A stretch of DNA of 64,000 bases from contig JAHRHZ010000250.1 of the NCBI GenBank assembly GCA_024137785.1, forward strand, positions 1,408,515 to 1,472,514, in the 5' to 3' direction. The number at the start of each line of letters is the position of its first letter. The stretch's first letter is position 1. A program made the position numbers and the translations under genes. Below are positions 4,291 to 48,019 of the stretch, in pieces. The stretch comes from Ginglymostoma cirratum (taxonomy: Eukaryota). The notes below the pieces were generated by a model that did no database searches, was not told where the DNA came from, and was given only the letters and a program-made list of their open reading frames with translations.

Positions 4291-4319
4291 TGTCGTTGTC
4301 ACTTCACTCAGTTGGCATG

Positions 4320-5300: not shown

Positions 5301-5329
5301 TTTTTACAATCTACAATTTAAAATTACCT

Positions 5330-7392: not shown

Positions 7393-7707
7393 CATGGTAA
7401 AAACACTTCTCAGACTTTTCTTAACTTCAAGTGATCCTGTTCGTGTGTCATAGAATGTTGCTACTGTAGACGAGTAAGTAATAAGTATTAAATGTTCACA
7501 AGTTGATGGTTAATTTCAGTTAGGCATATTTAAATGCTGAAGCACAAGAAAATCACTGGCTACCATAATAAGTAGGGTCTAAAGAAATGTGCTTAGTAGA
7601 AGGAGGAGGTAATACTGATCTGGTTATTCACTACGGAACATCTCACAAGTAACATTTTAGGAAAGGGAACGAAAGTTATGACTGAAATAAAAGGATCTTA
7701 ATTTTAA

Positions 7708-7880
7708 TTGCACAACCATAAATGTTAACTAAAACGATCTGCCAAGTCATTCCAGCTTTAAGAAGTCGTCTGTACGGTGATTGGTTGAACGTGGAGCTCC
7801 CTACTGACCAATCAGAAACTGAAATGTAAGTGGAGATCTTGACTGCCCCCTTGTCTGCTCATACACAATCAGATACAGTG
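7708..7880 (+). promoter_or_regulatory. Promoter module of V2
   Basis: TTGCACAACCATAAAT (7708), CATTCCAGCTTTAAGAA (7748), TGATTGGTTGAA (7778), ACCAATCAGAA (7807), GGAGATCTTGACTGCCCCCTT (7832). Confidence 0.8.
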
Positions 7881-8113
7881 GAGAATGGAATGGCGAGCTA
7901 CGGAGCATTTGTGAGGTTTGTGCGGTTATTGAGATTTTTCAGGAAAAAGGGAATGTTTGCCTGGAAGAATATCAGTGAAGTGGAAAAATTGAACGTATTT
8001 TATGCACTGCAGCGTCGCTTCTCCAAGAAAATGATACATGAAGACCTCGATTTTAAACACCGAATTAACAGCAGCGTACAGCACTGAAGCAATTGGAATG
8101 CTTTGTACTGGCG

Positions 8114-10579: not shown

Positions 10580-11589
10580 GTGAGCCAGTTGTAATGCAAC
10601 CTTACTGGTTATGTCTGAACCCACGAATTTCTACTGTAAAACACACTGAAATGTTTTGTTTGGTACGTCTGAGTTGCAGAGATATCTGAACTTTTTTCTT
10701 GTTAGTTCCTGCACATTACATGCAAAGCAAACTCCAACCTCTGAATGGTACTTAGGAGAGTGCTTCCAAATGCAGAAAGGTGAAATTATTTGTAACACTT
10801 AGTGCGGTTTACCCATTGCCTTAGCTCCCATTAATTGTCATGGTGCACTGTACCAAGTCATTGTATGCACACAATACAGGTGTGCTATCATCAAAGATCT
10901 GCCATTAGAAAGATGTATGCTGAGCTCAGTGACAAAGCAACTAATGAACTGTACTGCAGCCTAGTTCAGAAGGATACATATACTTTTGGTAACCGCATCT
11001 ACAGTTATGAAGTCCAGCTCAGTGTCCATAAGTGGAAGATATCTTTTCTTGGTGCAAAAAACAAAATGATAATGTACAAAATAAAACTGCTGAACAACCT
11101 ACTAATCAAATCTATATATCTCTACGGAATCTTATATCCCCACGGTAAAATGTATCACATTTTATATTCAGAATAATATAACAGAAATTTAATTAATTTT
11201 CAAGGGTGTTGGGTGGATTATTTTTCCAAAACATTGTCATTGGAGTGAGAGCATTGCTGGCAAGGTCAGCATTTATTAATCTTCCCTAATTACCTTTGAG
11301 AAGATTGCAGTGATTCTTTCTGATCTATCCAACGCAGTTGTGTACAATTCATTATGGGAAGTATTGGAGCAGAGCAGAGTTTATCAAAAGCGATTTTTTT
11401 TGGACATCAACTGTTTCATATGAAATTGTTAATCAATTTAGAGTGACTTTATTTAAGGATACATATTGTCAGGCAACATAATAGGTTATGGGGGAACCTA
11501 CAATCATAATACACTTAAATTGTTATTCTGGAAATAATTTCAGAAAACAGGACACATCTTCAACGAACATGTTGTAAGAAGGAAGAAAG

Positions 11590-13680: not shown

Positions 13681-14369
13681 ATTGGAAAAATGAGGCTAAG
13701 AGTCAAGAGTAAGAAGGTTGCTCTTTCAAACAGATGGCACATGCATATGGAGTGTACAGTTTCATGATCTTCTCTGCCCATGCTTGGACACTAGGTCCAC
13801 TTGTCCACCTGTTAGGACCTGTGCTGGCTCTAATTAGATTTTGTGCACATTGTTTCTAAACAGCTAGCAGACTTGTCATCACTGTAGGAAGAATTCTGAT
13901 CTTTGGGTCAACCTTCACAAAATGGCAAACCTTATTGCAATGAACTATTGTTCCTCTACACTATCTGAAATATGATTAGCATTACTGACTTGTTGTTCTA
14001 CTAATGACAGAAAAAAGAGAAAGCCAATTAATTGTATCTAAATGATAATAATATCCTAAAGCCTGTGATTTGGCTGACAACGATCATAATTTAATAAAAT
14101 GAGATATACATAAAAGTCCAACAAAGAAATAGAGATGCTGAAGATCTGAAAAAAACACAGGAATTGCTGGTGAAACTCAGGGTGTCTGACAGCAACTGTG
14201 GAAAGTTAATATTTCAAGTCCAGTAACTCATCAAAATAAAAATGTATTTCTTACCTTGCTCTCCAAGCAATGTCGGTTTTCAAATGTTCAGTGTATCCAT
14301 ACCTGTTTTAAAAAATTGCAGAAAGAAGGATACTTCCATAGCTTTAAAAAAATGTTTTGTGTTTTTTGG

Positions 14370-14545
14370 TTGTACAACAAAAAATTGAAATTACAACTAT
14401 TTAGGGGAACATTCTAGCTTTAAGAAATGAGTTGTCTTCTGATTGGTTGAACATGAGTCAGCCAATCAGAAGCTAGTAACTTGGTGGTGATCCGGCATGT
14501 CGCTTTCCCTTCCCATCTAGCATCGCACTCGGCCCGAGACAATGT
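14370..14545 (+). promoter_or_regulatory. Promoter module of V3
   Basis: TTGTACAACAAAAAAT (14370), CATTCTAGCTTTAAGAA (14410), TGATTGGTTGAA (14440), GCCAATCAGAA (14461), GGTGATCCGGCATGTCGCTTTCCC. Confidence 0.8.
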
Positions 14546-14783
14546 GAAATTGGTCAGCGAGCTATAGAGGGTTTGCAATCGTTTTCGCGGATTTTCATTG
14601 GGATTTTAACCTCAAAATGGAGGCCTTTTTGAAACCATTTCGAACATCTGTTAAAAGGTGAAGGCATTTTCCCTGCATTGCAGCCTTTTTTAGTAATGAA
14701 ACTCGGCACAAATAACTCTAATGTAAGGAAACGCCGAACGCCACGGAGCTGCGCTGAAACAATTGGAATGCTTAATACTGGCA

Positions 14784-17195
14784 ATGAGATGTTACAATAT
14801 ATTTTACTTTTTAAAATCGGAACTGCTATTTTGCATGTTTATCTCCTGGGGTCTAATTTTTGGAGAAATTCGTTACTCGATTCCTGAAGAATTGCAACTT
14901 GGTGCATTCATTGGAAACATTGCAGACGATTTGGGATTAGATGTTCAGCAGCTATCTGCTCGGAATTTTCGACTTGTATCAGGTCCAAATCAGCGATATT
15001 TGGAAGTCAATTTAGACAATGGGATTCTGTTCGTAAATGAAAAGGTTGACAGGGAACAAATCTGCGGCCCTCGTCTCACTTGCGTTTTGTCTTTGGAAGC
15101 TGTGCTTGAAAATCCTTTGAATTTGTATCAGATCGAGGTGGAGATTCTCGATATAAACGACAACGCTCCCAGTTTCCCGAAGGGCCAGGTCCGCCTTGAA
15201 ATCTCCGAAGTTGCGGCGCCGGGTAAGCATTTTCCCCTCGAGTGCGCGCACGATCCCGATGTTGGAACTAACTCCGTACAGACCTACCAGCTGGTTGCAA
15301 ATGAATACTTCTTGTTAAATGTTGAGGCGGGCATTGGAGATGGAAAATTACCCGTACTAGTGCTAGAAAAGCCCCTGGACAGAGAGAAGCAATCGATCCA
15401 CAGGCTACTGCTGTTGGCCAAAGACGGGGGGGTACCCGAGAGGTCTGGTACTACCCAAATCAATATCATAGTTGAAGATGCCAACGACAATGAGCCGTTT
15501 TTTCTGCAATCGGTTTACAGAGTCAGCCTGGCAGAGAATATATCCAAAGGGGCCTTGGCTCTGCAGGTAAACGCCACGGATTTAGATGATGGCTCAAATG
15601 GAGAGATTGTGTACTTTTTCGGTAGCCATACATCTGCAAAAGTCCGTGAGCTGTTTGGTTTGGATTCGAAAACGGGCGAGATCAGAACCAAAGCGAATTT
15701 GGATTATGAGGATATTAACGTTTTCGAGTTTATTGTACAAGCAAAGGACAAGGGACCTAATGCCAACCCAACATACTGTCATGTTGTGTTGAACATTATT
15801 GATGTCAATGATAATGCCCCTGAAGTGACGCTGACATCCTTATCTAGCCCTGTTCCGGAAGACTCTCTGCCGGGGACAGTAGTAGCCTTGATCAGTGCTT
15901 CAGACAGGGATTCCGGAGAATTTGGGCAGCTTCAGTGTAAAATCGGTAATCATCTTCCCTTCGCACTGGATTCGTCCTCAAAGAAATATTTACGGTTGAT
16001 CACGCAGGAACGGCTGGACCGCGAATCCTTCTCTATCTATGATGTGACTATCACTTGTAACGATGGCGGAACCCCGCCTCTCTCCACTAACAAAACCATT
16101 GTGGTTGAAGTTTCAGACATGAATGACAACGCGCCACGATTTGCGCAACCGTCCCTCACAGCGTACGTGATGGAGAATAACAAAATCGATGCGTCCATTT
16201 TCTCGGTGTCGGCTTCGGATCCCGACCTAGGGCAAAACGGCCAGATATCCTATTCTATCCTGGAGAGCCAGGTTCAGGGCGAATCGGTAAGCAGGTACAT
16301 CCACATAAATGCAGAGAGTGGCGTGATATATTCCTTTCGATCTTTTGACTACGAACAATTAAAAAACTTTCAGATCCGAGTTCAAGCGCATGATCATGGA
16401 GTCCCACAACTGGCTAGCAACGTCTCCATAGACATCATTATCCTTGATCAGAATGACAACGCTCCAGTGATTGTGCATCCGATAACCGAGTATGGGTCAA
16501 CAGTAACAGAGACTCTACCCCGATTGGCGGACCCAGGGTATCTCGTGACCAAGGTAACGGCCACTGATGCGGACTCTGGGCAAAATGCTCGCCTATCCTA
16601 TCGGATCCTCCATGATAACAACTTGGGACTTTTTACGATTTCATTGGAAACGGGTGAAATATGGACAACCCGGAGGATTACAAAGACAGATGCAAACAAG
16701 CAAAAGTTAGATATCCTTGTAAATGACAAAGGAATACCAGCACTTACAGCGACAATGACTATCATCCTGACAATTGTAGAAGGCAGTGCAGAAATGCTCA
16801 ATGACCCAGGCAGTTTAGCGGAAAGCCCCGGCTTCACTTCTGATACAGGCCTCTACTTAGTCATTTCTTTGGGAATTACCTCATCGGTTTTTTTGGTGGT
16901 TTTAATCATACTGGCTATTAAGGTTCACGAAAGCAGAACTGTTTTTGATGGACACAAATGTTTTTTGGGCACGTGTTGCTGCTTTGAATCGAGAAACGGA
17001 ATTCAGAAAGCCAGCCGGAACCTACAGATTACCCCCAATTATGTTGAAGTATTTGGGGGCGACCCACTTTCCCAAAGTTTTCGCTATGACACATGTTCGC
17101 TAAAGAGGGACTTCCATTTCCCCAACACGTCCACAGAAAATAATAAAGCTTGGAGGGAAGTCGTTGTAAACGGGGAGAAAGCTATACTTGGTGAG
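14784..17195 (+). CDS. Clustered protocadherin variable exon V3 (804 codons)
   Basis: ORF 14763..17297, ATG 14784. EC1-6, TM, cytoplasmic motif, phase-0 donor GAG|GTGAGG at 17195/17196. Confidence 0.93.
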
Positions 17196-18536
17196 GTGAG
17201 GTGCCTGGGTGGAAAGGATATTAATCGAGCATGTGCAACCAGATTGTCTTTGGGAATTTACAACACATGTTTTACTGTTTCACACAATTTCTTGTAACCA
17301 TTTACAGGCCGATCCAGATGCCATGGTGCAATACTTTTTTAAAAAAATTTGTTTATCTGTAAATACCCACTGTACCTTTCACTATCATTGTAATTTGCTC
17401 TCTCCAAACACCCAACATCCACCCCAATATGACACACAATGGACCAGAAGACGGATTGGGCTCTTCATTATTACAGCTGATCGTAAGATCACGAAAAAGA
17501 AAGGAGCAGGAGTAGGTTATTTGACGCACGGAACCCGTCCTATCATTTAAAATGATTACAACAAATAGCATGCAACCTTAACTCAAGCTTCCTGCCAGCA
17601 CCTCAGAGTACTGACCTCTCCTGTCGTTAAAGGTCTGTTTTACACAATCTTCAACATATTTAATAATCTCCACTGCTCTCTGTTGAAGAGAACTTCGGAG
17701 ACTATTTATTGATCCTCAAGAAGGCATTCCCCTTCATCTTGATCTAAAGCGGGAGGTGCCTTAACTTTAAAGTGCACCCCTAAGCATCCACGCTGTCAAG
17801 CCTCCTCAGAATATTTCATTGCATTTCAATAAGATCACTGCTCATTCGTTTAAAATCAATGAGTATAGGTCCCCCACTAATTCCTTCAGCACGAAGGTTT
17901 AGCAGCATATCATTGATTATTAATTCCACAGTTGAGAAACAAAGGCTGTCAGTGAAGCACCCAATCTTGTTTTAGCCCATGAATGTTGTAATGTGGGTCA
18001 GGAGTGTGCAGTACTATAACTATGACCGTTTCAGATGCTGTAGATGAGGTGAAAATCCGCTGCTTACCATATCTGGGCCATTAAGACATGACTGATGCAA
18101 ACATATTTCAACTCAATATTGAGGCAAATGATGGAATTTTGTTACATTCTTTTCAAGAAAGTTGATTAAACTTCACATGTCCTATCTAAGAGCATAAAAC
18201 AGACGAGCAGAAGCAGGCCATTCAGCCCCATCGAGTCTGCCCTCCCATTCAATGAGAACATGGCTGAAATGATTTCCTGCCAATCATATTTTAACAATGT
18301 TATGTCCAATTCAATTAGACATATTTAATGGAGAAAATAATCTGGCCAGGTGAACTTTGCGGTGGTGGAAACTTTCAGGTTATCAATTAAACATGCAGTT
18401 AAGTGAACGCTTTTGGCCAGGTTCGGATGTCTTATAAAGGCAATTACATTTCCGATCTATTTAGAACATAATTAATAATTCAAATGAGTGAAAACAGCGC
18501 AAAAATAATGAATGAAATGGTTGGTTTGATTTTATA

Positions 18537-18715
18537 TTGCACAACAATAAATATAACTATTGAGCAAAGTCTTGGAAATGCATTCCAACTTTAAGAAACG
18601 TTCATTGTCGTGATTGGGTGAATGTAAGGCAGCCTTTTCCTCCAATGAATAGCTACAATATTACCGGAGATCCTTACTGCCTTACCCTCCCTTCCGCCGT
18701 TGTATCCAACCAGAT
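18537..18715 (+). promoter_or_regulatory. Promoter module of V4
   Basis: TTGCACAACAATAAAT (18537), CATTCCAACTTTAAGAA (18581), TGATTGGGTGAA (18611), CCAATGAA (18642), GGAGATCCTTACTGCC (18666). Confidence 0.8.
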
Positions 18716-18966
18716 AGAGCTTGGGTAGAGCTGCGTCTCGTTACATTAGGTCTTCTACTTTTCAGCCACTGGTGATTTTAGAAGAAATAAGAAGGTTTGT
18801 TGGCAATAATATCATAGATTTATTTTAATTTTAAAACTGTGTTATTCAGGCAAGCTCGCTGTTTCGCCGGAATGGAAACATAATTGATTCTTATGCGAGG
18901 ATTTTTTTGTTTGTTTGTTTTGATTTTACACGGCGCTTGTGTCACTTGAAATGCTTTGTGCTGGAA

Positions 18967-21411
18967 ATGGAGCATTGTAAAACATATCGGCTATTCAAAT
19001 GTCTATTTTTATATTGTATCATCTTTTCTTGGGAACTGGCTTCCGGACAGATGCGTTATTCGATTCCTGAGGAACTGAATTTGGGCGCTTTTGTTGGAAA
19101 TATCGCCGACGATTTGGTTTTGGATAAAAATGAGCTATCAGCTCGCGGCTTTCAGATTGTGGACAGTCCCAGTAAGCAGTATCTGGACGTGAATTTAGAC
19201 AATGGAAATTTGCTTGTAAAAGAAAAAATAGACAGAGAGCAGCTGTGTGGACCAGCCCTCACTTGCACACTGTCCTTGGAAGCCGTGATTGAAAAGCCCC
19301 CGAACGTGTATCACTTTCAAGTGGAAATTCTGGATGTAAACGACAACGTTCCACGTTTCCCAGAGAGTCAGATCCGTCTGGAAATCTCAGAGGTGGCTGC
19401 TCTGGGAACGCGATTTGCTCTGGAGTGCGCGTTCGACCCAGACGTTGGTGCCAACTCTGTACAGAGTTACCAGCTGTCAGCCAACCACTATTTCAGCCTG
19501 GAGGTAGAAACGCGCCGTCGGGACGGAAAGCTACCAGTTTTAGTCTTGGAAAGATCCTTGGACAGAGAACAGGCGAATACGCACAGGTTAGTGTTAACTG
19601 CTAAAGACGGAGGCATCCCTGAGAGATCTGGCACTGCTGAAATAGTAATCGCAGTGGAAGATGCCAATGACAATGCACCTGTTTTCTCGCAGTCGGTCTA
19701 TAGTGTCAGTTTGCTGGAGAATGTACCTGTAGGAACTTTGGTGATCAAACTAGATGCCTCTGATTTGGATGTTGGTCTCAACGGGCAGATCGTGTATTCA
19801 TTTAGCAGTCACACTTCCAATAGAGTCCGGGAGCATTTTGCTTTGGATCCAAAAACTGGTGATATCAAAATTAAGAAGCATTTGAACCACAAAGACAACA
19901 GCGTTTTTGAGATTAATGTACAAGCAAAGGACAGAGGACCTAATGCAACTCCTGTTTACTGTCACGTGGTAGTTGACATCGTTGATGTAAACGACAACGC
20001 TCCTGAAGTGACTCTAACCTCTCTGTTCAGTCCTGTCAGTGAAGACTCCCTTCCGGGAACTGTAGTGGCTTTGATCAGTTCAACAGACAAAGACTCGGGT
20101 GAAAACGGGCACGTGCATTGTCAAATCTCAAATAAGCTTCCTTTTAAGCTGGACTCCTCCTTAAGTGGTTTTTATAGATTGGTTACCGGAGAGACACTGG
20201 ATCGGGAGTATAAATCGAAATACAATGTAACTATTGTGTGCAGTGATGCCGGAACCCCTCCACTCACAGTCAACAAAACCATCCTGCTGGAGGTTTCAGA
20301 TGTAAATGACAACCCACCGCAGTTCAGGCAACCTTTATATACTGCTCACGTGATGGAGAACAGCGCTATTGGTGAGTCCATATTCTCGGTCACTGCTTTT
20401 GATCCAGATGTAAATCAGAACGCCCGCCTAACCTACCATATCTCGGAGACACTAATTCACAGCATGCCAGCATCCACTTATGTCTCTATTAACTCGGACA
20501 GTGGAGTCATATACGCTCAGCGAATTTTTGACTACGAGCATCTGAAAAATTTTCAAATCCAGGTTCTGGCACGTGACTCTGGAGAACTGACTCTTTCTGG
20601 CAACACTTCAGTCGACATAATTATCCTGGACCAGAATGACAACGCCCCGGTGATCGTTCATCCCTTGCCCGAGTTCGGTTCCACGGTCTTCGAGACGGTA
20701 TCCCGGTTCGCAGAGCCAGGCTACCTGGTCGTCAAAGTTTCTGCTACAGACGCTGACACCGGTCAGAACGCACGCCTCACTTATCAGATTCTCCATGCTA
20801 CTGACGCTAGCCTTTTTACCATTTCACCAGATACGGGAGAGATCTGGACAATACGTAACATCGTGAATAAGGACGCTTCGAAGCAGAGGTTGGTAATCGG
20901 GGTTAAAGACAACGGCATACCTCCGTTGACAGCTACAGTAACGTTCATGCTCTCTGTGACGGGAACGGATGTACAAATGCTCTCTGGTGTGACCAGCGAC
21001 AACACTGGGTTCGTTTCCGATTCGAGTTTTTACCTGGTGATAACTTTCGGCCTCACCTCCTCCATTTTCCTAGTAATTTTGATTACCCTCGCGATTAAGG
21101 TGTACAACAGCTCTTCCGTAGACACCTGTGGCTGTTTGACTGCAAGGAACTCCCGAAGTGGGGTCCGGAAAGGCAGTAGAAGTCTTCAGATACCAGCGAA
21201 CTATGTTGAAGTGTTTGGGGGTGATCCACTTTCTCAGAGTTTCCGTTACGATACTTGCTCATCTTCATATTCCACAAAGGGAGGTTTCTTGTCTTCCCAC
21301 AGAGGCACTATGTCTGCCCGGACGAACCACATTCTGAATGGTGACTGGGGGAATGGAGACACCCCAAGAACACCAACCCATGCTCAGTGCAGAAGCGCTG
21401 TGAATTCTGAG
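18967..21411 (+). CDS. Clustered protocadherin variable exon V4 (815 codons)
   Basis: ORF 18907..21507, ATG 18967. EC1-6, TM, phase-0 donor GAG|GTGAGG at 21411/21412. Confidence 0.95.
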
Positions 21412-22284
21412 GTGAGGTTCTTATTCAAAAGCGAAAAGAAAACACCTCATGGTTTTGATTTGGAGTTACAATTGTCCTCGGGAACCATGCCGATCATGAA
21501 GATCTGAGTTAGGAAATGCCCAAGAGAGAATCCCTTCATTCAGCTTTGTTATCTGAAGGCCCAGTGGCTAATTTTGGACCAGCTCTTGTGCTATTCAATA
21601 AGTTGTCCTGAGGTGTGTTCACATGGCTTACCATCACGCTAATTGTGCTGCTTAGAGAAAATTACCATTAAGTATGTGTGCATAAACCAAAATTGACATG
21701 CCTGAAGTGCCGCCTGCAATCTGCACCATCTATACTTTAGAATGGAAGGAAATTGTAGCTTATTCTGGAATTCCACCCTGGTCCGTAAGGACAAAATAAA
21801 TTTAGTTTCAGTGCTCTGATGGTGGTTATGCATATTGTTGCAATGTGTTATTGTCTAGGGTTTACATTTTTAAGCAGAATTAAAGCATCTCATATTTCAT
21901 TGGGGAAATATTCTGATCAGCAAACAGTCAAATGAAATAGTTGAAGAAGTGTTCTGAAGGCTCACTAAACACTAAACTTTTTCTCTACAAATGTTGCCAG
22001 ACCTGCTGAGTTTCTGCAGCAATTTATGCCTTTGTAACTGAAATAACTGGATGGGCTCAGCGGAGATTAAATGTCTCATGTGAATAAAGTGAGAAATATG
22101 TATTGAAAGGCAGGGTACTCTGAATTATCAGTCAAGTGGTGTAACACCTTATTAGGGAAGAGATAAAACAATTTCAGGTTTTAAAATAGTTTTAAAGAAG
22201 ACAATTTTTGGTAATTCACCAATGTTTGGAAAATATGGAGGAAGAGTCACCAAAATAGGGTCGTAAAAAAAGTAGAAATTTAGA

Positions 22285-22465
22285 TTGCACAACGCTAAAT
22301 GTCAAAATCACTGAGCTATTTACAGAGACATTCCAGCTTTAAGAAATGTTCCGCATGGTCATTGGTTGAACTCCCATTCACCAATGAAAAGCTGTAATGT
22401 GTCTGGAGATCTTGACTGCCCCCTTCCCTCCCCATCCACCATTACGTGCGATCAGATACAGCGGA
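22285..22465 (+). promoter_or_regulatory. Promoter module of V5
   Basis: TTGCACAACGCTAAAT (22285), CATTCCAGCTTTAAGAA (22329), CATTGGTTGAA (22360), CACCAATGAA (22379), GGAGATCTTGACTGCCCCCTT (22405). Confidence 0.8.
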
Positions 22466-22700
22466 AAACCGGTATAGAGAGCTGCGTAGCTCTACACCGG
22501 GTGTAATATTCATTTATGTTGGCAATTTTACAAAGAAATAAGAGGAACAGATCGACTTCTCAGTGATATGTGAAAAATACAGGTATTTTCATGTAATGTT
22601 ATCCCTTTTTAGCGTTGAAAATCGTTTACACTGAATCTTATTCCAAGGAATCACTGAATGGCGAGACGCGCAGAAGCTTTTGGAATGCATTGTGCGGGAA

Positions 22701-25145
22701 ATGGGATTTTCTGAAATACATTGGCTGTTGAAATGGTCACTTTTTTTCTTTACGTTACCCTCCTGGGTGCTTGTTTCGGGACAGATTCGCTATTCAATTC
22801 CTGAAGAACTGCAACTGGGCGCCTTTGTTGGGAATATCGCAGATGATTTGGGTTTAGACGCGAACGAGCTCAAAACTCGCAATTTTCGGATTGTGTCTGG
22901 GCCCAGGAAGCAGTATCTGGACGTAAATGTGGACAATGGGATATTATTTGTGAAAGAAAAAATTGACAGAGAACAGCTCTGTGGGCCTAACCTGATATGC
23001 ACCTTGTCCTTAGAAGCCGTGATCGGAAATCCTTTAAACGTGTATCATTTCCAAGTGGATATTCTGGATGTGAATGACCACGCTCCCAGTTTCCCAGAAA
23101 GTCAATTCCGATTGGAAATCTCAGAGGTAGCCGTGCAAGGAGCGCGTTTTGCCCTGAAATCGGCTCAGGACCCAGATGTTGGAACTAACGCTTTACAGAC
23201 CTACCTGTTAATCAGTAACGAATATTTCGCACTAGACATCCAGTCGCGCAGTGGAGATGGCAAATTGCCAGTATTAGTATTGCAAAAGCCGCTGGACAGG
23301 GAAAAACAAAAGACACACAGGCTCGTACTAATTGCCAAGGACGGGGGAATCCCTCAAAAATCTGGAACTGCCCAGGTAATTATTATCGTACAAGATGCGA
23401 ACGACAACGCGCCGGTGTTTTCACAATCAGTACATAGGGTGAGACTGCTGGAAAATGCATCTAAAGGCACACTTGTAATCAAACTAAACGCAACCGACTT
23501 GGACGATGGCCCTAATGGAGAAGTTGTATATTCGTTCAGTAGTCACGCCTCTTCCAAAGTCCGCGAACTGTTCAACGTGGATTCCAGAAATGGGGAGATC
23601 AGAATCAAAGGCAACTTGAACTATGAAGAAAATCGTGTTTTTGAGATTAATGTGCAAGCAATGGACAAGGGGCCTTATGCGACGCCTGTGTACTGCGATG
23701 TCCTGGTTAACCTTACTGATGTCAATGATAACTCACCTGAGATAACTTTGACCTCTATGTTCAGTCCTGTTATTGAGAACTCCTTGTCTGGGACGGTGGT
23801 AGCCTTGTTTAGTGTGGAGGACAAAGACTCGGGAGATAATGGACAGGTTCAATGCCAACTTGCAAATGGTTCTCCTTTCAGACTAGATTCGCCTGTGAAG
23901 AATTACTACAGCTTGGTCACTCAGCAGCCACTCGATCGCGAAACAACGTCAGAGTACGACCTTACAATCCTGTGTAGCGACAGAGGAATCCCTCCTCTCG
24001 CAGCCAAGAAATCCATCCGGGTGGAAGTTTTCGATGTTAATGATAACGTTCCACGTTTTACACAACCTTCATACACAGCCTACGTGATGGAGAACAACAT
24101 TATCGGTTCCTCTGTTTTCACTGTGACAGCCTTCGATGCAGACTTAAATCAGAATTCTCGACTCTCCTACTCCATCCTGGAAACTGGGGACCAGGATTTA
24201 CCAATATCCGCCTATGTGCAGATTCATTCAGAAACTGGTGTGATATATTCTCAGACAACATTTGACTACGAACAACTTAAAAACTTTCAGATTCACGTGC
24301 AGGCACAGGACTCTGGAGCTAAGCCGCTGGCCAGCAACGCCTCAGTTCAATTTATTATCCTTGATCAAAATGACAATGCGCCAGTGTTCACACAGCCATC
24401 GCCAGAGTATGACTCGACGGCAGTAGAGACAGTTTCGAGATTTACCGAACCAGGATACCTGGTTGCAAAAGTGTCCGCAACCGACGCGGACTCTGGCCAG
24501 AATGCTCGCCTTGTTTACCAGATTTTTCAGTCTACCGACCCGGGACTTTTTACTATTTCAGCGGACTCGGGGGAAATATGGACAGTTCGTAGTATCCTGA
24601 ACAAGGATCTCAGTGAGCAAAAGTTGGTCATTGTTGCAAAAGACAGTGGAGTCCCGCCACTTACAGCGACAATGACCATCATTATATCAGTGGAACAAAG
24701 TAAAACAGGAATGTTATCCGAGATGGACACTTTACCAGAAGGAGCTGTTTTTGCTTCGGATACAAACTTTTACTTGGTCATAGGTTTGGGGTTACTCTCT
24801 ATCATTTTTCTAGTGATTTTAGTTATCCTCGCCGTTATGGTTTTTAAAAACAGACCTGGTGTTGACCACCAGAGCTCTTCTCGGGGCACCTGTTGTTGCT
24901 TTGAGACAAGTACTCACAAGGCCAGTCGGAGCCTTCAGATTCCTCCGAACTACGTGGAAGTGTTTGGGGGCGACCCACTTTCTCAGAGCTTCCGCTACGA
25001 GACGTGCTCGTCTTCAGATACACTGAAGAGAGACTTCATGTTTCGCAGTATGCGGAGTTCACACGCCGGAAAGGCCGGCCCTGCTGGCAAAGACCCCCCA
25101 CCAAAGTTGAACTCTGCAAACTCTAGAAATACTGTTAATTGTGAG
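22701..25145 (+). CDS. Clustered protocadherin variable exon V5 (815 codons)
   Basis: ORF 22680..25169, ATG 22701. EC1-6, TM, phase-0 donor GAG|GTGAGA at 25145/25146. Confidence 0.95.
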
Positions 25146-25636
25146 GTGAGACACCCGGCTGCTGGGTGAGTGGGAGGTAATGCGTTATTGGCCGGGGCAC
25201 ACGTTAAACTAAGGCTATATTAATGTGGATATGAGGCGATGGGAGACATTATCCCTGGGCTTTCAATCTTCGTCGCTTTCCAAATTTCTCACCATCCTAA
25301 CATCTGCACCTAAATCGACGCCAGATATTTTCCCTCATAATTATTCCGTTATATTTATCGTTGTAATTGTTATCCTGTATTAAACTGTTAATAATTCTTT
25401 GACGCATGGTATAAATAGCAAAGGAATTCATTGTTCTCTACATAAAAAGAACTGCAGTTTTGAGACGCTGAGATTCTTCTTTCCCTCCCTAAACAGGCAA
25501 GACTACGGGTCATATTCTCGAGGTGATGGATCCTTATTTAGTGCTGACGTGGAGAGAAATATAGAGAAATGGGGGAGATGATGGTATTGTGGTATACCTC
25601 TAGTATTCCAGAGGCCGATTGAATTTGAATTCAGGA

Positions 25637-25794
25637 TCTATAGGTATAAGGTTGGAAAAGCACAGCGGGCCAGACAGCATCAGAGGAGCAGGAAAGTAGA
25701 ACTCCCAACAAAGGTTTTCGGACGGAAATATTGACTTTCCTGCTCCTCTGATGCTGTCTGGCCCGCTGTGCTTTTCCAGCCTCACACCTATAGA
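25637..25794. repeat. Near-perfect hairpin element (~60-bp inverted arms), Penelope-like-derived family
   Basis: tctataggt..ggaaaagcacagcgggccagacagcatcagaggagcaggaaagt (25637-25698) is the reverse complement of actttcctgctcctctgatgctgtctggcccgctgtgcttttcc..acctataga (25734-25794). Confidence 0.8.
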
Positions 25795-25904
25795 CTCGGA
25801 ATTTAAATGCAATCCATAAATCTGGAATAAAAGCAAAGGTGACTGAAAATATCATCAATTAGTGTACATATCTTATCCGGTTCACTAATGTACTTTGGCT
25901 AAGG

Positions 25905-26310
25905 AAACGTGCCAGCCTTTTTCAGTCTGGTCTATATGTGACTTCAGATACAGAGCAATGTGATTGACTCTTAAGTGTCCTCTGAAATAGCCTAAGAGCC
26001 CATTTAGTTCAATGGCAATTCGGGATGGGCAACAAATGTTGGCCTTGTCAGCGACGCCCACATCGATGAAAGAGTAAATAAAAACACTCCGAGGATTCTG
26101 AATTCTCTGCCCGAGAGAGATGTGGATGTTCAATCAAGTATATTTAGAAATGAGATGGATTTAAGCGCATAAAATGAGCTATAGTTTCTGGGGAGATGAT
26201 GGAAAAGTAGAATTAATGAAATGTTGAGTCATGTTCTTACTGAAGGAGGGGAAGACGTTGGATGGCCCATGTAGCCTATTTATACTTCTCGTTCTTATGT
26301 TCTTATGTAT
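25905..26310 (+). mobile_element. 3' half of a tRNA-SINE (25905-26082) followed by a CR1 tail fragment
   Basis: Matches the 3' part of 56650-56993 (tgtgacttcaga...caatgtgattgactctt...ggcaattcgggatgggcaacaaatgttggccttgtcagcgacgcccacatc). Ends in a (ttcttatg)n CR1-type tail. Confidence 0.6.
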
Positions 26311-26586
26311 CAATACCTTATGATGGTGAAAGTCAGAGATCGTATTCTAAGTTTTTTTAACCTGCCTAATTGACAGTCTCCATATCTGTGCTTTGCACGA
26401 AGTCATCTATGCATGACATACAGTTAACAAAAAGAAACTGCTGTACAATTTACCTGCAAATAATAACTAGGATCATTAGCCTTGCTGTTATTTTGTTAGA
26501 AAATGTTATTGCATTGCTGAAAAACTCTTTGATAGCGTAAAGGCTAGAGTTAAAAGTTTGTAGGAAAGAAGTGGGAATATTTTTGG

Positions 26587-26770
26587 TTGTGCAACCATAA
26601 ATATTGCTTTTACGCAAAGGTTTGCAAAGACATTCGAGCTTTAAGCGACGCCAAAGGCAATGATTGGTTGATATGAACATGCCTACGTTCACCAATCAGA
26701 AGCTAGAACTTGCCTGGAGATCCCTTTTCCCTCCCCATCCACCATCAATGTAAGATCGGCGACAGTGTAA
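26587..26770 (+). promoter_or_regulatory. Promoter module of V6
   Basis: TTGTGCAACCATAAAT (26587), CATTCGAGCTTTAAGCG (26631), TGATTGGTTGA (26661), CACCAATCAGAA (26690), GGAGATC (26716) followed directly by the pyrimidine tract. Confidence 0.8.
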
Positions 26771-26998
26771 AAATGGACAGCAAGCTGTCGGTTGCTGTAT
26801 TGCGATTTGCACGTATATCTACGGATGATTTTAGAATTAATAAGAACGGTCGTCACAAATGAGACTAGGATGTATAAATAATACAGGTACTTTGCAAATT
26901 ACAGCTCTCGTAAAATTATATATAGGGAAGTTTATTGAGACCAGTTGGCGAACGGAGCTGCGCTGCACTGAAGCATCTGAAATGTTTTGTCGCTGGAA

Positions 26999-29473
26999 AT
27001 GGGATATTATAGAATATACTGGTTGGTAAAATTGCAACTGTTGTACTGTGTATTCCCCTCCTGGATTCTGGTTTCGGGGCAACTTCATTACTCGATTCCT
27101 GAAGAGTTACAGCTGGGTGCCTTTGTTGGAAACATTGCCGAGGATTTGGGTTTAACTGTGGAAGAGCTGTCGCCTCGAAATTTTCGAATTGTGCCCGGCT
27201 CCAACAAAAGGTTTTTCGACGTAAATTTAGACAGTGGGATTTTATTTGTGAAGGAGATAATTGACAGAGAACAACTCTGTGGGTCGAGTCTCATATGCTT
27301 ATTGTCTGTAGAGGCTGTGATCGAAAATCCTCTGAATGTCTATCGAATTGAGGTGGAGATTTTGGATATTAACGATAACGTTCCCCATTTTCCAAAAAAC
27401 GAAATCCGCCTTGAAATGTCTGAACTGGCTGTACCGGGAGCGCGCTTCCCCCTTGAGTGCGCGCACGACCCTGACGTTGGAACCAATTCCCTACAAAGCT
27501 ACCGATTGCTTGGGAGTCGGTACTTCGGTCTGGACATTGAAACCCGCAGTGGGGACGAGAAGCTGCCAGTGCTGGTGCTTGAAAAGGCACTGGATCGAGA
27601 GAAAGACTCAACCCACAGGTTAGAGCTCATTGCCAAGGATGGAGGGATCCCTCCGCGGTCCAGCACTGCTCAAATAATAATCACGGTGCTGGACGCCAAT
27701 GATAACTCTCCTGTGTTCTCCCAGTCGGTTTACAGGGTCAGCCTGAATGAAAATGTGCCAAAAGGAACAGTGGTGATCAAACTGAATGCAACTGATTTGG
27801 ACGATGGTTCTAATGGTGAGATAGAATATTCTTTTACCAGTCATACCTCAGGGACAGTTCGTGAGCTGTTTGATCTGGACTCCAAAACCGGGGAGATCAA
27901 AGTGAAAGGCAATTTGGACTATGAAGAAAATAATGCTTTTGAGATCAATGTTCAGGCAATGGATCGGGGCTCTGCACCACTGCCAGTGTACTGTCACATA
28001 CATGTCGATGTTACCGATGTGAATGATAACTCACCAGAGGTGTTAGTGACTTCTTTGTTCAGTCCAGTTAGTGAAGGCGATGTGCCCGGGACTGTGGTGG
28101 CTCTGATCAGCAGCACCGACAAAGACTCAGGAGAAAATGGACAGGTCCGCTGCCAAATCCCAGATAACATTCCGTTTAAGTTGAATTCTCCTTTAAAGAA
28201 TTATTACAAATTGTTAACGCGGGAGGAACTGGACAGGGAAACCGCCTCTAAGTACGACATCACTGTCCTCTGCAGTGATGCAAGCTCGACCCCACTGTCT
28301 TCCAAGAAAACTTTGCGGGTGGAGGTCACTGACGTAAATGACAATGCTCCACGTTTTAAACAGTCCGTGTACACAGCCTATGTGATGGAGAACAATGTTA
28401 TCGGAGGGTCAATCCTTTCTGTGGCAGCGTCCGACCCGGATGTTAACGAGAACGGTCAAATATCTTACTCTATTCCGAGGAAACAGATTCAGGACGAACC
28501 AGTGACCAACTACGTGCGTATTAATTCAAATAATGGAGTCATACTTTCTCAGATAGCATTCGATTATGAGAAACTTAAAAACTTTCAGTTCCAGGTTCAG
28601 GCACAGGATTCTGGAGTTCCAGCACTCAGCAGCAACGTTTCGGTAGATGTTGTTATCCTTGACCAGAACGACAATGCTCCAGTGATTCTGCACCCACTAC
28701 CTGAGTATGGGTCAACAGCAACAGAGACAATGTCCCGTTGGGCAGAACCAGGATATCTGGTTACCAAGGTATCTGCCATTGATGCAGACTCTGGTCAGAA
28801 CTCTCGCCTATCTTATCAGATTATTCAGACTACTGACCCAGGACTTTTCACGATTTCACCAGATACTGGCGAAATCTGGACAGTCCGTAGAATTGAGGGC
28901 AGAGATTCAATAAAGCAGAGTTTAACAATTATTGTAAAAGACAACGGAACACCACCACTTTCAGCGTCTATGACGATCGGTATATCGGTGGTGGATGGGG
29001 AATCAGAGCTGCTTTCTGATGCCGGAAGTTTAAATGAAGATCCTGGGTTCCCTTCCGATTTGAGTTTTTACTTGGTGATATCCTTAGCATTAATTTCGTC
29101 CATTTTTCTGGTAATTTTAATTTTCCTTGCTGTGAAAGTGCACAAGAACAGAACTCGGCTCGGAGTTTACAGCTGTGCCCTGGACGCCTGCTGCTGTTGT
29201 GAATCAAGACATTCATTGAATGGCATTCAAAGGGCCAGCAGAAACATTCAGATACCTCCAAATTATGTGGAGGTATTTGGTGGCGACCCACTTTCTCAGA
29301 GTTTCCGCTACGAGACATGTTCAACCTTAGTTTCAACTAAGCATGACTCTGCCTTTTCAAAGGTGTGCACTTCATCTCATTTGAAATGTAATGTCAGGAG
29401 TGAATACATTGAGAAGGGAAAAAATCCACACATCTCACCTCCTGAAAAATGTACAAACACTGTAAATAGTGAG
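26999..29473 (+). CDS. Clustered protocadherin variable exon V6 (825 codons)
   Basis: ORF 26987..29506, ATG 26999. EC1-6, TM, phase-0 donor GAG|GTGAGA at 29473/29474. Confidence 0.95.
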
Positions 29474-30064
29474 GTGAGATATTGCTTCAAAAGGGAAAAA
29501 AGATAAACCACAAGTTTGATTTGGTTGCACATAAGTCGATCGGCTGAATGGTCCGCTTCTGCTCCTTCGTCTTGTGGTCTTACATACAATGGAGATTTCC
29601 AACGCATAGCTAACTATTTCTGTGTGGTTCTATGCAGTTGAAGGTGAAGATAAAAAATACAACCCAGTAGCTTACATTATTTCCTTGCATTTTTGGAACA
29701 AGAACTTATATATTTATGGTATATTAAAAACGTCCCTGGAGGTGGTGGAAGAGGTGGGGATAGCTGAGCTTCAGTTATGTCTAATTGATAAGAACTGTTC
29801 AAGATTGTTCCTTCTAATTGAAAAAAATGCACAATGTAGTTGCAATATGTGTCACAGGAAAATAGTGTACAAGGAACAAAATGAACAAGATATACATCTG
29901 AAAGGGAATAAGTTAAAACAAAAATCTACAAAATACTATTATTTAGCAGAACAATTCCAATTGTTGAATACACATTTAATTTGGGTAAAACTGTGAATAT
30001 AAATGTATTTTGTAATATATTTGTTGGAAAGAATGTATCTTAATTAGGCATGGAAAAGTGAAAA

Positions 30065-31390
30065 ATTGCAGATACTGAAAGTCTGATATTTTTAAATCGA
30101 AAATGTTGGGCAAATTCATCAAGTCTGACAACGTCTGTGATGAAAGAAAGTGAGTTAACATGTTTCAGATTTGTGACTGTTCATCAGGCCGGGAAAAGTT
30201 AGAAAGATATTGGGATTTGAGTAAGAAGTAGGTGGGACAAGGACAAACAAAGATCTGCAATAGAATGAATGCCAGGAGAGATATAATAGCCGAAAAACTA
30301 GTCTTCCAGGGCTAAACGGAATGAGGCAAGAAACAAATTATATGTTTTGAGCAGATATATTGTAATTTGTGACAAAAACATGAAGAGAAAACCCAGCACG
30401 GGTAAAGAGAAGAAACAAAATGGGGGCAGAGGTTATTGTGCGACATTAGTTCTTCTTATTCATTCACAGGATATGGGTTTTGCTGGCTGGACCACCTTTT
30501 AGTGTCCATACCTAAATATCCATAGGGCAGTTAAGGGTCAACCACAATGCTGTGGGTCTGGAGTCATATGCAGTTCAGACCAAGTAAGGATGGTAGTTGC
30601 CTTCCCTATAAGATATTAGTGAACCTGATGGATTTTTCCAACAATCAACAATGGACTCATGGTCATCATTAGAGTCTTAATTCCACAATTTCATTGAATT
30701 GAAATTTCACCATCTGCCGTGGCATGATTCGATCCCAGGTCCTCAGAACATTATCTGGCTGTCTGGATTGACAGCCACACGAAGATGTTGCCTCCCCCTA
30801 CTGAAGTCAGCGTTAAAATTGGAGAGGTGTAAAGTGTCTATCAAAAGATAACATAATGTTCCTCACATGTACTTTGCGCCTCATGGAACAGTGATGCAGA
30901 CTGAGGACAGAGATGTCAGTGTAAAAAGAAAGTGCAGGATTAAAATAATAAGCCATTGGAAGCTGAAGATCATGCCTGCAAACGGAACAAAGGTGATCCA
31001 CATAGCAGTAAGGCAATCCGCATCTGACACACCCACCATCCATTCCCTCAGGAAAGAGGAAACAATATTTTGAGCAGAGTACATCCTAAACTAGATTGAG
31101 AGACGTGCGTATAAATTGCTGCTTCAGCTGAATGAAGTAATTGGGGGCTCGGATGTTGAGGAGAGAAGACGTCTAGGTGCCAAACCTGTGATAGCGTGAA
31201 AGGCGCAGTTGAATGGCAAGTTTTTTTGGGGGGGGTACTGAAATCTACTCTTCCCCCAGAGTGTCACAGAGGGAAGAGAATGCCGGAATAGGGTTCTGAA
31301 ATCAATTACCTCAATGTGAAAGGTGGATATCCGTTTGAGAGCATTTTAAAGGGATCAGATGATATGTTTCCAGCATTTTCTGTTTTCCTA
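30065..31390 (-). mobile_element. Decayed Penelope-like retroelement (GIY-YIG endonuclease remnant), interrupted by a SINE
   Basis: Minus ORF 30813..31043 (LPMAYYFNPALSFYTDISVLSLHHCS) resembles the PLE GIY-YIG C-terminus (PVAxHFNxxxHSxxDxxVLGL). The 31040-31150 minus strand resembles F-TC-S-N-VY-I-C. CTGATGA...GAAA core on minus at about 30160-30187. Confidence 0.6.
30455..30800 (-). mobile_element. tRNA-derived SINE with LINE-like tail
   Basis: Full-length reverse-complement match to 56650-56993. Confidence 0.8.
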
Positions 31391-31662
31391 TCACTTATGT
31401 GTAATTTACAGATAAGATAGTCATTATGCATTCACAATATGATAAGTGAAGCTTGTGTATTAAGCATATGCTTCGATCTGTTCCATTCCGGCTTCTGGTA
31501 AAAATAAATCACTTCAACTATTTAGTTCGCGTGCATGGCGACATGCGTTTTGCAGAGAATGTATATAGATGCATTTCCAAATATTCTCCTTTCTTCAGCT
31601 TCTTTTTAGAGTAACTTGACGGAGAAAGTTAGATCACTAAACTAATAGAGCAAGGATTTTCA

Positions 31663-31840
31663 TTGTACAACAATAAATGTTCAACTTCCTGACCTGATAG
31701 CTTTAAGAAATGCTGCGAGTTGTGATTGGTTGAGGACAAATGGGTCTCCATCCACCAATCAGTAGCTGAACGGTGACTGGAGATCCAGACTGCCCCCTTC
31801 CCGTCCCATCAGCCATCACATAGGATCTGACACAGTGTGA
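31663..31840 (+). promoter_or_regulatory. Promoter module of V7
   Basis: TTGTACAACAATAAAT (31663), AGCTTTAAGAA (31699), TGATTGGTTGA (31723), CACCAATCAG (31753), GGAGATCCAGACTGCCCCCTT (31779). Confidence 0.8.
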
Positions 31841-32063
31841 TTTTGGGTAGCGAGTAGCAGGGTATTTTATATTCCCAATCTTTAGTGATTTTAGAATAAT
31901 TGAGAAGAGTTATCAGAAATTGCCTCGGAGAATGTATCTCAATTGCAGGTATTATGGCTCTTTATTTTGGATTTTGAAAAATGATACGTAGTCATTTTAT
32001 TCCAAGGAGTAAAGTGGACAGCGCTGTGACGTGCTGGAAGGATTGAAATGCTTTGTGCTGGAA

Positions 32064-34490
32064 ATGGGATTTTATAAAATATATTGGTTGTTAAGATGGC
32101 AACTATTGTGTTTACTGTTCTGCTGGAACCTGGTTTCTGGACAGATTCGGTATTCCATTCCTGAAGAATTACAGCTGGGCGCGTTTGTTGGGGACATCGC
32201 GGCTGATTTGGGTTTAAATGTAAAACAGTTCTCGACTAGGAATTTTCGGATTGTATCCGGACCCAGGATAGAGTACTTTGGTGTGAATGTAGACAATGGG
32301 ATTTTAGTGGTGCAGGAGAATATTGACCGAGAGCAGCTCTGTGGATCGAGCCTCGGTTGTACTTTGACGCTGGAGGCTGTGATCGACGAGCCACTGAATG
32401 TGTATCACGTCGAGGTGGAAATTCTAGATATAAACGACAACGCTCCCCATTTCCCGAAGGGACAGTTCCGTTTGGAAATATCCGAGTTAGCAGTGCCTGG
32501 AATTCGCTTCCCACTGGAGCCTGCGTACGATCCCGACGTAGGCTCCAACTCCTTGCAAAGCTATCAGTTGGCTCCTAATCAGTATTTTAAGTTGGATGTA
32601 CAATCTCGCAGTGAGGACGTTAAACTCCCAGTTCTGGTGATGGAGCGACCTCTTGATAGAGAACAGCAGCCCACACTGCAGCTAGTGTTGACCGCCACTG
32701 ATGGGGGCATTCCGCAGAGATCTGGCACTGCACAGATTCTCATCCACGCTCTGGATGTCAACGACAATGTACCTACCTTTAGCCAGTCCCTTTATCGTGT
32801 TAGTTTGATGGAAAATGTGCCCATAGGAACGTTGGTGATCAAAGTGAACGCCACTGACCCAGATGAAGGTTCCAATGGAGAAATTGTCTATTCCTTTGGT
32901 AGCCACATTTCTGTTACAGTGCGGGAACTGTTCAGTGTGGATCCCACAACTGGAGAGATTCGCGTGAAAGGACATCTAGATTTTGAATCAGCAAAGCAGT
33001 TAGAGATTAGTGTGCAAGCTGTGGACAAAGGCGCAGGATCTGTACCCGTGCATTGCGATGTGATAGTGGAAGTGGACGATGTGAATGATAATGCGCCTGA
33101 AGTAACGGTGACTTCTTTGTCCAGTTCAGTGCCTGAAGATGCCCTACTGGGGACTGTGCTAGCTTTAATCAGTGTGACTGATTTGGATGTGGGGAAGAAT
33201 GGAAACACACACTGCCGGATCCCAAAGAACCTTCCTTTCGAATTGGATTCAACATTTAAGAACTATTACCGATTGGTCACCAAAGATTTACTAGACCGAG
33301 AAATGGTTTCTCAATATGATATCACCGTTACCTGCTGGGACGAAGGTTCGCCCGTACTCACCTCCAACAAAACCATTCAGCTGAAGATCTCTGATATAAA
33401 CGACAGCCCGCCACGTTTCTCACAGACTTCATACACCACCTATATCACCGAGAACAACGTCATTGGCAGCTCTATCTACTCAGTACCAGCTTTTGATTCG
33501 GATTTAAATCAGAATTCCAGGTTGTCCTATTCTATTTTACAGACACAGGTCGGCCACGACCCTGTTTATAATTATGTCTCCATTAATTCAGACAGCGGTG
33601 TAATATCTGCTGAGCGCTCTTTTGACTATGAAGAATTGAAGAAATTTCAGATCCAGGTCCAAGCTATAGACGCTGGAATTCCTCCACTGAGCAGTAATGT
33701 GGCTGTGTTCGTGGTCATTCTAGACCAAAATGATAATGCCCCAGTCATTATATCCCCAATACAGGAGTATGGGTCGACAGCAGTGGAGACAGTATCTCGA
33801 TCAGCAGAGCCGGGTTACCTGGTGACCAAGGTGTCAGCCACTGATGCGGATTCAGGTCCCAATGCAAGGCTCTCTTATCAACTGGCTCAGGCTACTGACC
33901 CTGGTCTTTTTACCATTGCTGCGGACACAGGAGAGATCTGGACAGTCCGCCGCATTACGGGCCAAGATGCAACTAAACAGCGCTTGGTTGTCCTAGTAAA
34001 AGACGATGGGCTCCCCCCTCTGACTGCCTCCATGAATATCATCTTATCATTGACGGACAGTGAGAGTGAAATTCTTTCTGAAGTCAGTAGCTTAACTGAG
34101 GATGTCAGACTGCCTTCGGACCTAAGCCTATACTTAGTCATAGCTTTAGGGACGATCTCATCCATTTTTCTAATGATTTTGGTTATCTTGGCTGTCAAAG
34201 TCCACCAAAGTAGGAACGTTCTTCACCGTCACAGCTGCTCCCTTGATACGGACTGCTGCTTCGGGTCAACGCATTCTCTCAATGGAATACAAAAAGCCAG
34301 CGTGAACCTTCAGATTCCCCCGAACTATGTTGAAGTGTTTGGCCGTGACCCATTGTCTCAGAACTTTGGTTACGAGGTATGTTCTACATCGGATAAAGAG
34401 ACAAGTGGCAACGTATTTCCCAAAATTCAAATTCTTACTCGATATAGGCAACCGCCTTATTGTGACATGGTCAGGCTTCAAATGTTGTAA
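32064..34490 (+). CDS. Clustered protocadherin variable exon V7 (last before the constant region); ORF stops 26 nt before the paralogous donor
   Basis: ORF 32031..34490, ATG 32064. EC1-6 and TM intact. TAA at 34488-34490. The positional donor GAG|GTAAGG (34516/34517) is out of frame. An in-frame donor GAG|GTATGT lies at 34376/34377. Confidence 0.88.
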   Translation: MGFYKIYWLLRWQLLCLLFCWNLVSGQIRYSIPEELQLGAFVGDIAADLGLNVKQFSTRNFRIVSGPRIEYFGVNVDNGILVVQENIDREQLCGSSLGCTLTLEAVIDEPLNVYHVEVEILDINDNAPHFPKGQFRLEISELAVPGIRFPLEPAYDPDVGSNSLQSYQLAPNQYFKLDVQSRSEDVKLPVLVMERPLDREQQPTLQLVLTATDGGIPQRSGTAQILIHALDVNDNVPTFSQSLYRVSLMENVPIGTLVIKVNATDPDEGSNGEIVYSFGSHISVTVRELFSVDPTTGEIRVKGHLDFESAKQLEISVQAVDKGAGSVPVHCDVIVEVDDVNDNAPEVTVTSLSSSVPEDALLGTVLALISVTDLDVGKNGNTHCRIPKNLPFELDSTFKNYYRLVTKDLLDREMVSQYDITVTCWDEGSPVLTSNKTIQLKISDINDSPPRFSQTSYTTYITENNVIGSSIYSVPAFDSDLNQNSRLSYSILQTQVGHDPVYNYVSINSDSGVISAERSFDYEELKKFQIQVQAIDAGIPPLSSNVAVFVVILDQNDNAPVIISPIQEYGSTAVETVSRSAEPGYLVTKVSATDADSGPNARLSYQLAQATDPGLFTIAADTGEIWTVRRITGQDATKQRLVVLVKDDGLPPLTASMNIILSLTDSESEILSEVSSLTEDVRLPSDLSLYLVIALGTISSIFLMILVILAVKVHQSRNVLHRHSCSLDTDCCFGSTHSLNGIQKASVNLQIPPNYVEVFGRDPLSQNFGYEVCSTSDKETSGNVFPKIQILTRYRQPPYCDMVRLQML

Positions 34491-41764: not shown

Positions 41765-41823
41765 GTAAAGCAACCAAATGCTGACTGGCGTTTCTCACAG
41801 ACTCACAGAGCCGAACTAAACAG
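41765..41823 (+). CDS. Protocadherin constant exon 1 (59 bp; VKQPNADWRFSQTHRAELN+AG)
   Basis: Poly-T tract plus AG at 41763-41764 and donor CAG|GTACTT at 41823/41824. Phase 0 in, matching the variable-exon donors. PNxDWRFSQ motif as in Pcdh-gamma (PPNTDWRFSQ) and alpha (QPNPDWRYS) constant exon 1, which are also 59 bp. Confidence 0.93.
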
Positions 41824-47789: not shown

Positions 47790-48019
47790 TTCTCAGTATC
47801 AGGAGGACGAAGGAGTACAGCGTGATATACAACGTGAAGTTCAGCGTGAGGTGCAGTGTGATGTCCAGTGTGAAGCACCTCATGACGTCCAGTGCAATGT
47901 GCCCCATAACATTCAGCATGAGGTTCAGCGTGATGTTCCCTGTGACGTGCAGCGAGTGGTTGAGAATGAACCTGGCGCAGCAAGGAAACCAGCATGTGCA
48001 AGGCCTGCAGCCATCCCTG
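47790..48019 (+). CDS. Protocadherin constant exon 2 (230 bp; SQYQEDEGVQRDIQRE...AARKPACARPAAIP) containing a tetrapeptide repeat
   Basis: Acceptor ccctgtttttttctgcAG| at 47788-47789. Phase 2 in completes AG+T=Ser from exon 1 (ELN-S-SQ, compare gamma TSG-SQ). Open frame (part of ORF 47686..48081). Donor CTG|GTCAGT at 48019/48020 is phase 1, as in alpha/gamma constant exon 2. Confidence 0.8.
47815..47958 (+). repeat. Coding 12-bp tandem repeat, 12 units (consensus GTN CAG CGT GAN)
   Basis: VQRD IQRE VQRE VQCD VQCE APHD VQCN VPHN IQHE VQRD VPCD VQRV. Confidence 0.9.

Follow-up and report, generated by a model that had tools for sequence, protein, structure and literature searches.

The cytoplasmic tail shared by a set of shark protocadherins contains a coding repeat rich in Cys and His, which raises the question of whether these residues mark a functional site, such as a metal-binding one, or record a mutational process. 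The repeat lies in a 230-bp exon of Ginglymostoma cirratum within a stretch of 64,000 nucleotides that was analysed as a whole (hereafter the window). A first-pass annotation had described it as a minisatellite built into the tail, had attributed its Cys and His to CpG decay, and had proposed metal-binding, palmitoylation or interaction roles. Our analyses indicate that the repeat is real and that its mutational explanation is right, and that the functional speculation is mostly unsupported. Much of the evidence comes from a comparison of 16 rows, each the tail of a single species (the window and 15 named species). The features of the window are as follows.

1149..34490, + strand: seven tandem variable exons of the protocadherin-nu subcluster, with cadherin ectodomains, a transmembrane segment and a short cytoplasmic part
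41765..41823, + strand: constant exon 1, 59 bp, VKQPNADWR..., upstream of exon 2
47790..48019, + strand: protocadherin-nu constant exon 2, 230 bp, open, phase 2 start and phase 1 end
47790..47814, + strand: non-repeat 5' part of exon 2, S-Q-Y-x-E-x-E, homologous to the exon 2 start in a gamma-like tail and in candidate mu exon 2
47815..47958, + strand: repeat array of 12 degenerate 12-bp units, 144 bp, consensus GTT CAG CGT GAT (V-Q-R-D)
47893..47895, + strand: unit-7 Cys codon, invariant in 15/15 elasmobranch rows and aligned with the sole chimaera Cys (column C35)
47941..47943, + strand: unit-11 Cys codon, invariant in 15/15 elasmobranch rows, absent from the chimaera
47959..48019, + strand: 3' part of exon 2, a 20-residue Pro/Ala/basic flank with a Cys at 47995 in 15/15 elasmobranch rows, absent from the chimaera

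Exon 2 is bordered by a pyrimidine-rich acceptor (ttctgcag) and a GT donor (gtcagt), and is free of stops with the phases that the first-pass annotation had given. Its translation begins S-Q-Y-Q-E-D-E-G and continues through 12 four-residue units into the Pro/Ala/basic flank. The claim that 144 of the 230 bp are built of 12-bp units was borne out, as was the number of units, but the motif by which they had been described, V-Q-(R/C/H)-(D/E), is strictly matched by only five of the 12. The periodicity is nevertheless strong, as the lag-12 identity of the array is 0.58 versus 0.31 ± 0.04 for shuffled codons (none of 20000 shuffles as high), and all other 144-bp segments examined (n = 5235) fall below it, with a maximum of 0.42. 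The units have a mean pairwise identity of 61%, no two are identical, and TRF sees fragments only (5.2 and 2.2 copies). Position 3 of the units reads R,R,R,C,C,H,C,H,H,R,C,R, encoded by five Arg codons (four CGT, one CGA), four Cys codons (three TGT, one TGC) and three His codons (CAT), so that its restriction to Arg, Cys and His holds in the window. The reported four Cys and three His are likewise present, but not as an uninterrupted run of seven: units 4–9 form a run of six and unit 11 stands apart.

The first-pass annotation had likened the exon to constant exon 2 of alpha/gamma clusters. We place it elsewhere: the chondrichthyan-only matches, the Callorhinchus milii nu records and the position on the contig identify it by homology as constant exon 2 of the chondrichthyan protocadherin-nu subcluster. 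Of 60 candidates for the exon-2 peptide, 54 proteins matched, every one an elasmobranch protocadherin, with identities from 99% (Rhincodon typus) down to 56% (Rhinoraja). A whole-tail search, passed by 89 of 717 candidates, added Pristis, Leucoraja, Amblyraja and C. milii ‘protocadherin nu’, the last standing alone among the tail-search matches in carrying a subcluster name. No bony-vertebrate record passed in the tail searches (89/717 and 10/55 candidates, all chondrichthyan). The locus combines tandem variable exons with shared constant exons, orthology to C. milii nu and the last constant set on the contig: three Cadherin_tail terminal exons were found on contig C250, of which that of nu is the most 3', and we assume, from the listing order of the papers, a subcluster order of delta, epsilon, mu, nu with nu as the last constant-exon set. 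The variable-exon open reading frames begin at 1149, 8069, 14727, 18835, 22635, 26981 and 32013, and tblastn places the variable exons at 62–94% to a whale-shark record. PMC2764143 and PMC4978886 describe four subclusters in the elephant shark (delta, epsilon, mu and nu), with alpha, beta and gamma lacking, and the former source reports nu to be without a bony-vertebrate ortholog. A full-length HMMER search returned mostly very long multi-cadherin proteins, with a recognisable constant tail in one of 149 new proteins and an alpha tail in none, and delta constant exons 1 and 2 were not found in the same genome. The NCBI names of P0001-P0093 include ‘beta-like’, ‘gamma-like’, ‘alpha-C2-like’ and ‘protocadherin-10-like’ despite one common nu tail, which is of use for annotation, as records labelled ‘beta-like’ or ‘gamma-like’ can be recognised as having a nu tail.

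The closest known counterpart is C. milii protocadherin-nu (nu8, B0YN92 / ABV59355.1), in which exon 1 is identical to that of the window at 15 of 20 positions and the terminal exon is 88% identical (compared via Hemiscyllium P0023). Its exon 2 has the same V-Q-R-D/E array, with 11 units rather than 12, one Cys and one His in place of four and three, and a 3' flank without Cys. Deposited elephant-shark nu records such as ABV59355.1 already carry the repeat, and by these alignments the window exon adds one more ortholog to a family member that was known before. The C. milii nu subcluster was reportedly described by Yu et al. 2008 (PNAS 105:3819); our literature search found no paper describing the repeat, which may nevertheless already have appeared in Yu et al. 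2008 or in the accompanying supplement. A more distant comparison is offered by record P0095, which we take to be of gamma type from its motifs, and which aligns with nu in exon 1 (PNxDWR), the exon 2 start (SQxLEE) and the terminal exon (DY..NVYIPG and a basic end), scores that were reached by 0, 1 and 0 of 2000 shuffles, respectively. P0095 differs in having neither the repeat nor the FITFGK motif, and the nu 3' flank does not align with it (score 14, shuffle mean 14.4). Elasmobranch nu, moreover, apparently has not three but five constant exons.

The array is old and its length has scarcely changed. Among the 16 rows, 14 have 12 units, the skate Rhinoraja has 14 and the chimaera Callorhinchus has 11, and all length differences are whole units, with no frame-breaking change in any row. 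In 93 named records, obtained with queries that select for records including the exon, the counts are 12 units in 81, 14 in seven and 11 in five. Copy-number variation between species, as had been suggested, thus exists but is rare (2/16 rows). Elasmobranch units also keep positional signatures, including Ile in unit 2, Asn in unit 8 and Cys in units 7 and 11. Because the array with its position-specific units is present in sharks, batoids and a chimaera, its expansion would predate the chimaera-elasmobranch split, roughly 400 million years ago, and it would have been near-frozen since. A mobile or genome-wide minisatellite was rejected, as the three-unit pattern has a single match in the 4.36-Gb genome and the repeat DNA likewise one. 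An active coding minisatellite (VNTR) was also rejected given the divergence of the units, with three samples of organism A, a small set, showing no length difference.

Evidence on the source of the array came from the mu-type constant exons of the same genome, which lie outside the window.

L032:1175-1233: mu-type constant exon 1, 59 bp
L032:9295-9371: candidate protocadherin-mu constant exon 2, 77 bp, 8 kb past mu exon 1
L013:1506 onward: mu-type terminal exon

Candidate mu exon 2, one of 31 candidates and known from genomic DNA only, is unexpanded and uses AGA for Arg. It matches nu exon 2 in its phases and in the GTCAGT donor and resembles it at the acceptor start. It aligns ungapped to the first 19 nu exon-2 residues, or about three units, with V-K-R-E in register (12–47 of 5000 shuffles reach the score; 25 of 45 first bases match). 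Since this alignment is in register with about three units, the array likely grew from native exon sequence and was not inserted, the mu match being suggestive on this point. Of the idea that a minisatellite was built into the tail, lengthening by in-frame 12-bp units therefore stands, but insertion looks unlikely. The first-pass annotation gives 89 bp for constant exon 2 of alpha and gamma, and the 86 bp that remain in nu exon 2 outside the repeat are compatible with a short ancestral exon; as proof of its length the comparison fails, as the mu match includes about three units. We propose that before the chimaera-elasmobranch split a native 12-bp V-x-R-E segment may have been expanded by slippage or unequal crossover, and that the array would then have been frozen as its units diverged.

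The restriction of position 3 extends well beyond the window: all 193 units of the 16 rows have Arg (118), Cys (52) or His (23) there and nothing else, compared with nine, six and five kinds of residue at positions 1, 2 and 4. In CGY codons, the transitions that alter the residue lead only to Cys (TGY) or His (CAY). Parsimony on an assumed species tree of 15 rows, leaving out the chimaera and the two extra skate units, gave 15 changes at position 3, all of which can be read as gains from Arg (11 His and four Cys). Under ordinary transition bias, the probability that all 15 stay within R/C/H is 3e-5 to 2e-3; a tenfold CpG effect raises it to 0.24–0.48. Outside the repeat, four of five variable columns with an Arg majority also change to C, H or W. 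The CpG deamination that the first-pass annotation had invoked is therefore in keeping with 193/193 units and 15/15 changes of the CpG-transition type, and CpG decay is a well-supported explanation of the R/C/H pattern, with codons seen in the window and organism B and CGY ancestry elsewhere deduced from amino acids. Methylated CGY codons for Arg would have decayed to TGY or CAY and the products been tolerated. This mutational account, good as it is, argues for drift rather than design, and selection may also shape the spectrum, Arg to His being a mild change. CpG observed/expected is 0.73 in the repeat versus 0.23 and 0.20 in the flanking introns. The variable exons at 1149-34490 have values of 0.69–0.88 against approximately 0.2 in introns, by which measure the 0.73 of the repeat is not special. 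What we appear to see is a coding repeat that expanded once, was frozen through cartilaginous-fish history and was then rewritten by CpG bias into a mimic of a Cys/His motif.

The exon is present in spliced molecules. Contigs from four of 24 sequencing runs were compared with the window, and those of X1 and X16, from two studies, have the exon-1 letters 41791-41820 directly before exon 2. No run is on record as RNA, yet the junction itself shows that exon 2 is spliced to constant exon 1, and contig depth and loose ends shift at both ends of exon 2. The join of variable to constant exons was observed in annotated homologue records only. Behind the exon-2 donor two contigs branch off in both X1 and X16, and their branch consensus, a mixed one compared by hand, matches the start of a third constant exon (exon 3, below) at 20 of 30 letters; all 30 letters would fit if exon 3 and the E-V-H-T-S-G-A-R exon of the whale-shark record were tied. 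In X1 and X3, contigs continue into the intron behind exon 2, and read-through of the donor (window 48020-48082) would add 21 residues before a stop; this could represent either a shortened tail or simply RNA that had not been spliced. An acceptor farther upstream is used in one Rhincodon record, P0254, which gains nine residues from it; the corresponding AG of the window (47760-47789), 28 bases upstream, would cause a frameshift, and the P0254 form is therefore not conserved.

The suggestion that copy number varies between individuals was not upheld, as three samples of organism A have no differences from the window over the repeat, in a small set of contigs that drop rare variants. Organism B has three exon differences from the window, of which a single one, a silent change, falls in the repeat, leaving the repeat without a replacement; over 550 bases of intron it has 16 substitutions and one gap (crude P = 0.04). 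Because the CpG observed/expected of the repeat is above that of the introns and organism B has no replacement in it, some purifying selection on the repeat seems indicated.

What has been kept in the repeat is its frame, length, periodicity and near-neutral charge: the net charge per residue is between -0.08 and +0.02 in 16/16 rows, with a charged fraction of 0.29–0.44. Its residues are far less constrained, with 1.19 changes per site compared with 0.40 in exon 1, 0.32 in exon 3 and 0.75 in the flanks, and 14 of 48 columns are invariant, units 2 and 3 almost wholly so. AlphaFold with 12 sequences and without metal predicted a helix at 4–26 and coil for the rest (pLDDT 57.5, pTM 0.24), whereas a single-sequence model of P0023 had a pLDDT of 35 and failed on the cadherin domains also. 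Pfam gave nothing over its cutoff for the repeat and one match below it, and the ESM Atlas gave no usable match. A coiled coil was rejected by reasoning, since a period of four with prolines gives no heptad. We consider it probable that the repeat is a length-constrained, charge-balanced and mostly disordered spacer whose Cys and His come from mutation bias and not from selection for a metal site, and we infer the spacer function from this evolutionary pattern. Selection would hold frame, length and near-neutral charge, and the predicted weak helix and coil would put the distal signalling exons, with NVYIPG and the WIRS-type FITFGK, approximately 48 residues farther from the membrane. Several points count against a spacer: the near-fixed, clade-wide length is stricter than many linkers need, the 14 invariant columns could mark a binding surface, and no elasmobranch row has lost the Cys of units 7 and 11 or that of the 3' flank.

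A metal site, with Cys and His spaced at i,i+4 next to acidic residues and binding Zn or Cu, as proposed from the four Cys and three His of the window, is highly improbable. Units 4–9 of the window and Rhincodon do spell C-x3-C-x3-H-x3-C-x3-H-x3-H, which could bind metal in vitro, but this six-unit run is confined to these two of the 16 rows. Five rows have neither a position-3 His nor an adjacent Cys/His pair, only a single Cys and a single His are present in the chimaera, and prolines in units 6, 8 and 11 interrupt a stretch that is predicted to be coil. The placement of His at position 3 differs from lineage to lineage, and neither the ligand set nor the spacing is conserved. The repeat therefore advises caution against reading metal sites from a single sequence. 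A specific protein-binding or self-association role, as an N-terminal salt-bridged E/R helix or a low-complexity condensate segment, would fit the near-invariance of units 2 and 3, the clade-wide length, the predicted helix and the balanced charge; we nonetheless regard it as distinctly unlikely, as the repeat is the fastest-changing part of the common tail, model confidence is low, no Pfam match is convincing, and 48 residues without aromatic stickers would probably be a weak driver of condensation.

The finding would matter more if the fixed Cys were functional. Those of units 7 and 11 and of the K-x-x-C in the 3' flank, born of CpG decay, may have been co-opted in elasmobranchs for S-acylation or redox chemistry or dimerisation, with His as noise. 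All three are invariant in the elasmobranch rows, that of unit 7 aligns with the only Cys of the chimaera, the downstream one has basic neighbors, and batoids have a His directly before the unit-11 Cys. However, invariance is shared by 14 of the 48 columns anyway and TGT is no longer hypermutable, Cys was gained no more often than His (four gains versus 11; P = 0.12), and each variable exon already supplies 2–5 juxtamembrane Cys, the juxtamembrane position being the more usual one for acylation. Such co-option thus appears unlikely, the two or three fixed Cys leaving a small opening for acylation. A broader conjecture, which we think rather improbable, is that CpG decay in a frozen coding repeat acted as a ligand generator, from which three Cys would have been fixed in elasmobranchs, to serve acylation or the metal-bridged clustering of nu tails, and a six-ligand Cys/His stripe would later have been assembled in carpet sharks.

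Of the constant exons that follow the repeat, it is the last that looks more interesting than the repeat itself. Two of them were located beyond the window.

L003:2184-2294: optional constant exon 3, 111 bp, in-frame, AGRDGWTLPR...
L004:3031-3247 (G000:C250 from 1495547): terminal constant exon, read in two frames

Exon 3 is the most conserved part of the tail, and its homologue is present in two Callorhinchus records (UniRef). Records show four tail types, in which exon 3 and a fourth exon are each optional, and the repeat lies upstream of the frame switch in all four. Without the fourth exon the terminal exon is read in frame A, which contains NVYIPG and F-I-T-F-G-K-K-K-K, whereas the frame-shifting fourth exon puts it in frame B, giving 52 residues. 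Frame B has the same length in 13/13 species records that show it and ends none of the C. milii records seen; when codons were resampled synonymously, chance left it open in 2.8% of cases. The fourth exon was not found in G000 with the queries used, in stretches that have gaps, so that this is not evidence of absence. The F-I-T-F-G-K of frame A fits the WIRS consensus Phi-x-T/S-F-x-x given in PMC10318009 and is a predicted motif that frame B lacks. Mammalian alpha tails are of A and B types (PMC3472330), and it is through its WIRS that alpha recruits the WAVE complex (PMC7811963). The two-frame terminal exon may turn recruitment of the WAVE complex on and off; if true, this would add weight to the finding, as it would parallel the mammalian alpha A and B tails by a different route. 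Were the ligand generator also true, the two together would make a redox- or metal-tuned protocadherin tail of shark neurons with no bony-vertebrate counterpart. The terminal exon of the delta-type constant set, the most 5' one (L012:1480-1743), also has NVYIPG and, as read by eye, a WIRS-like FSTFGK.
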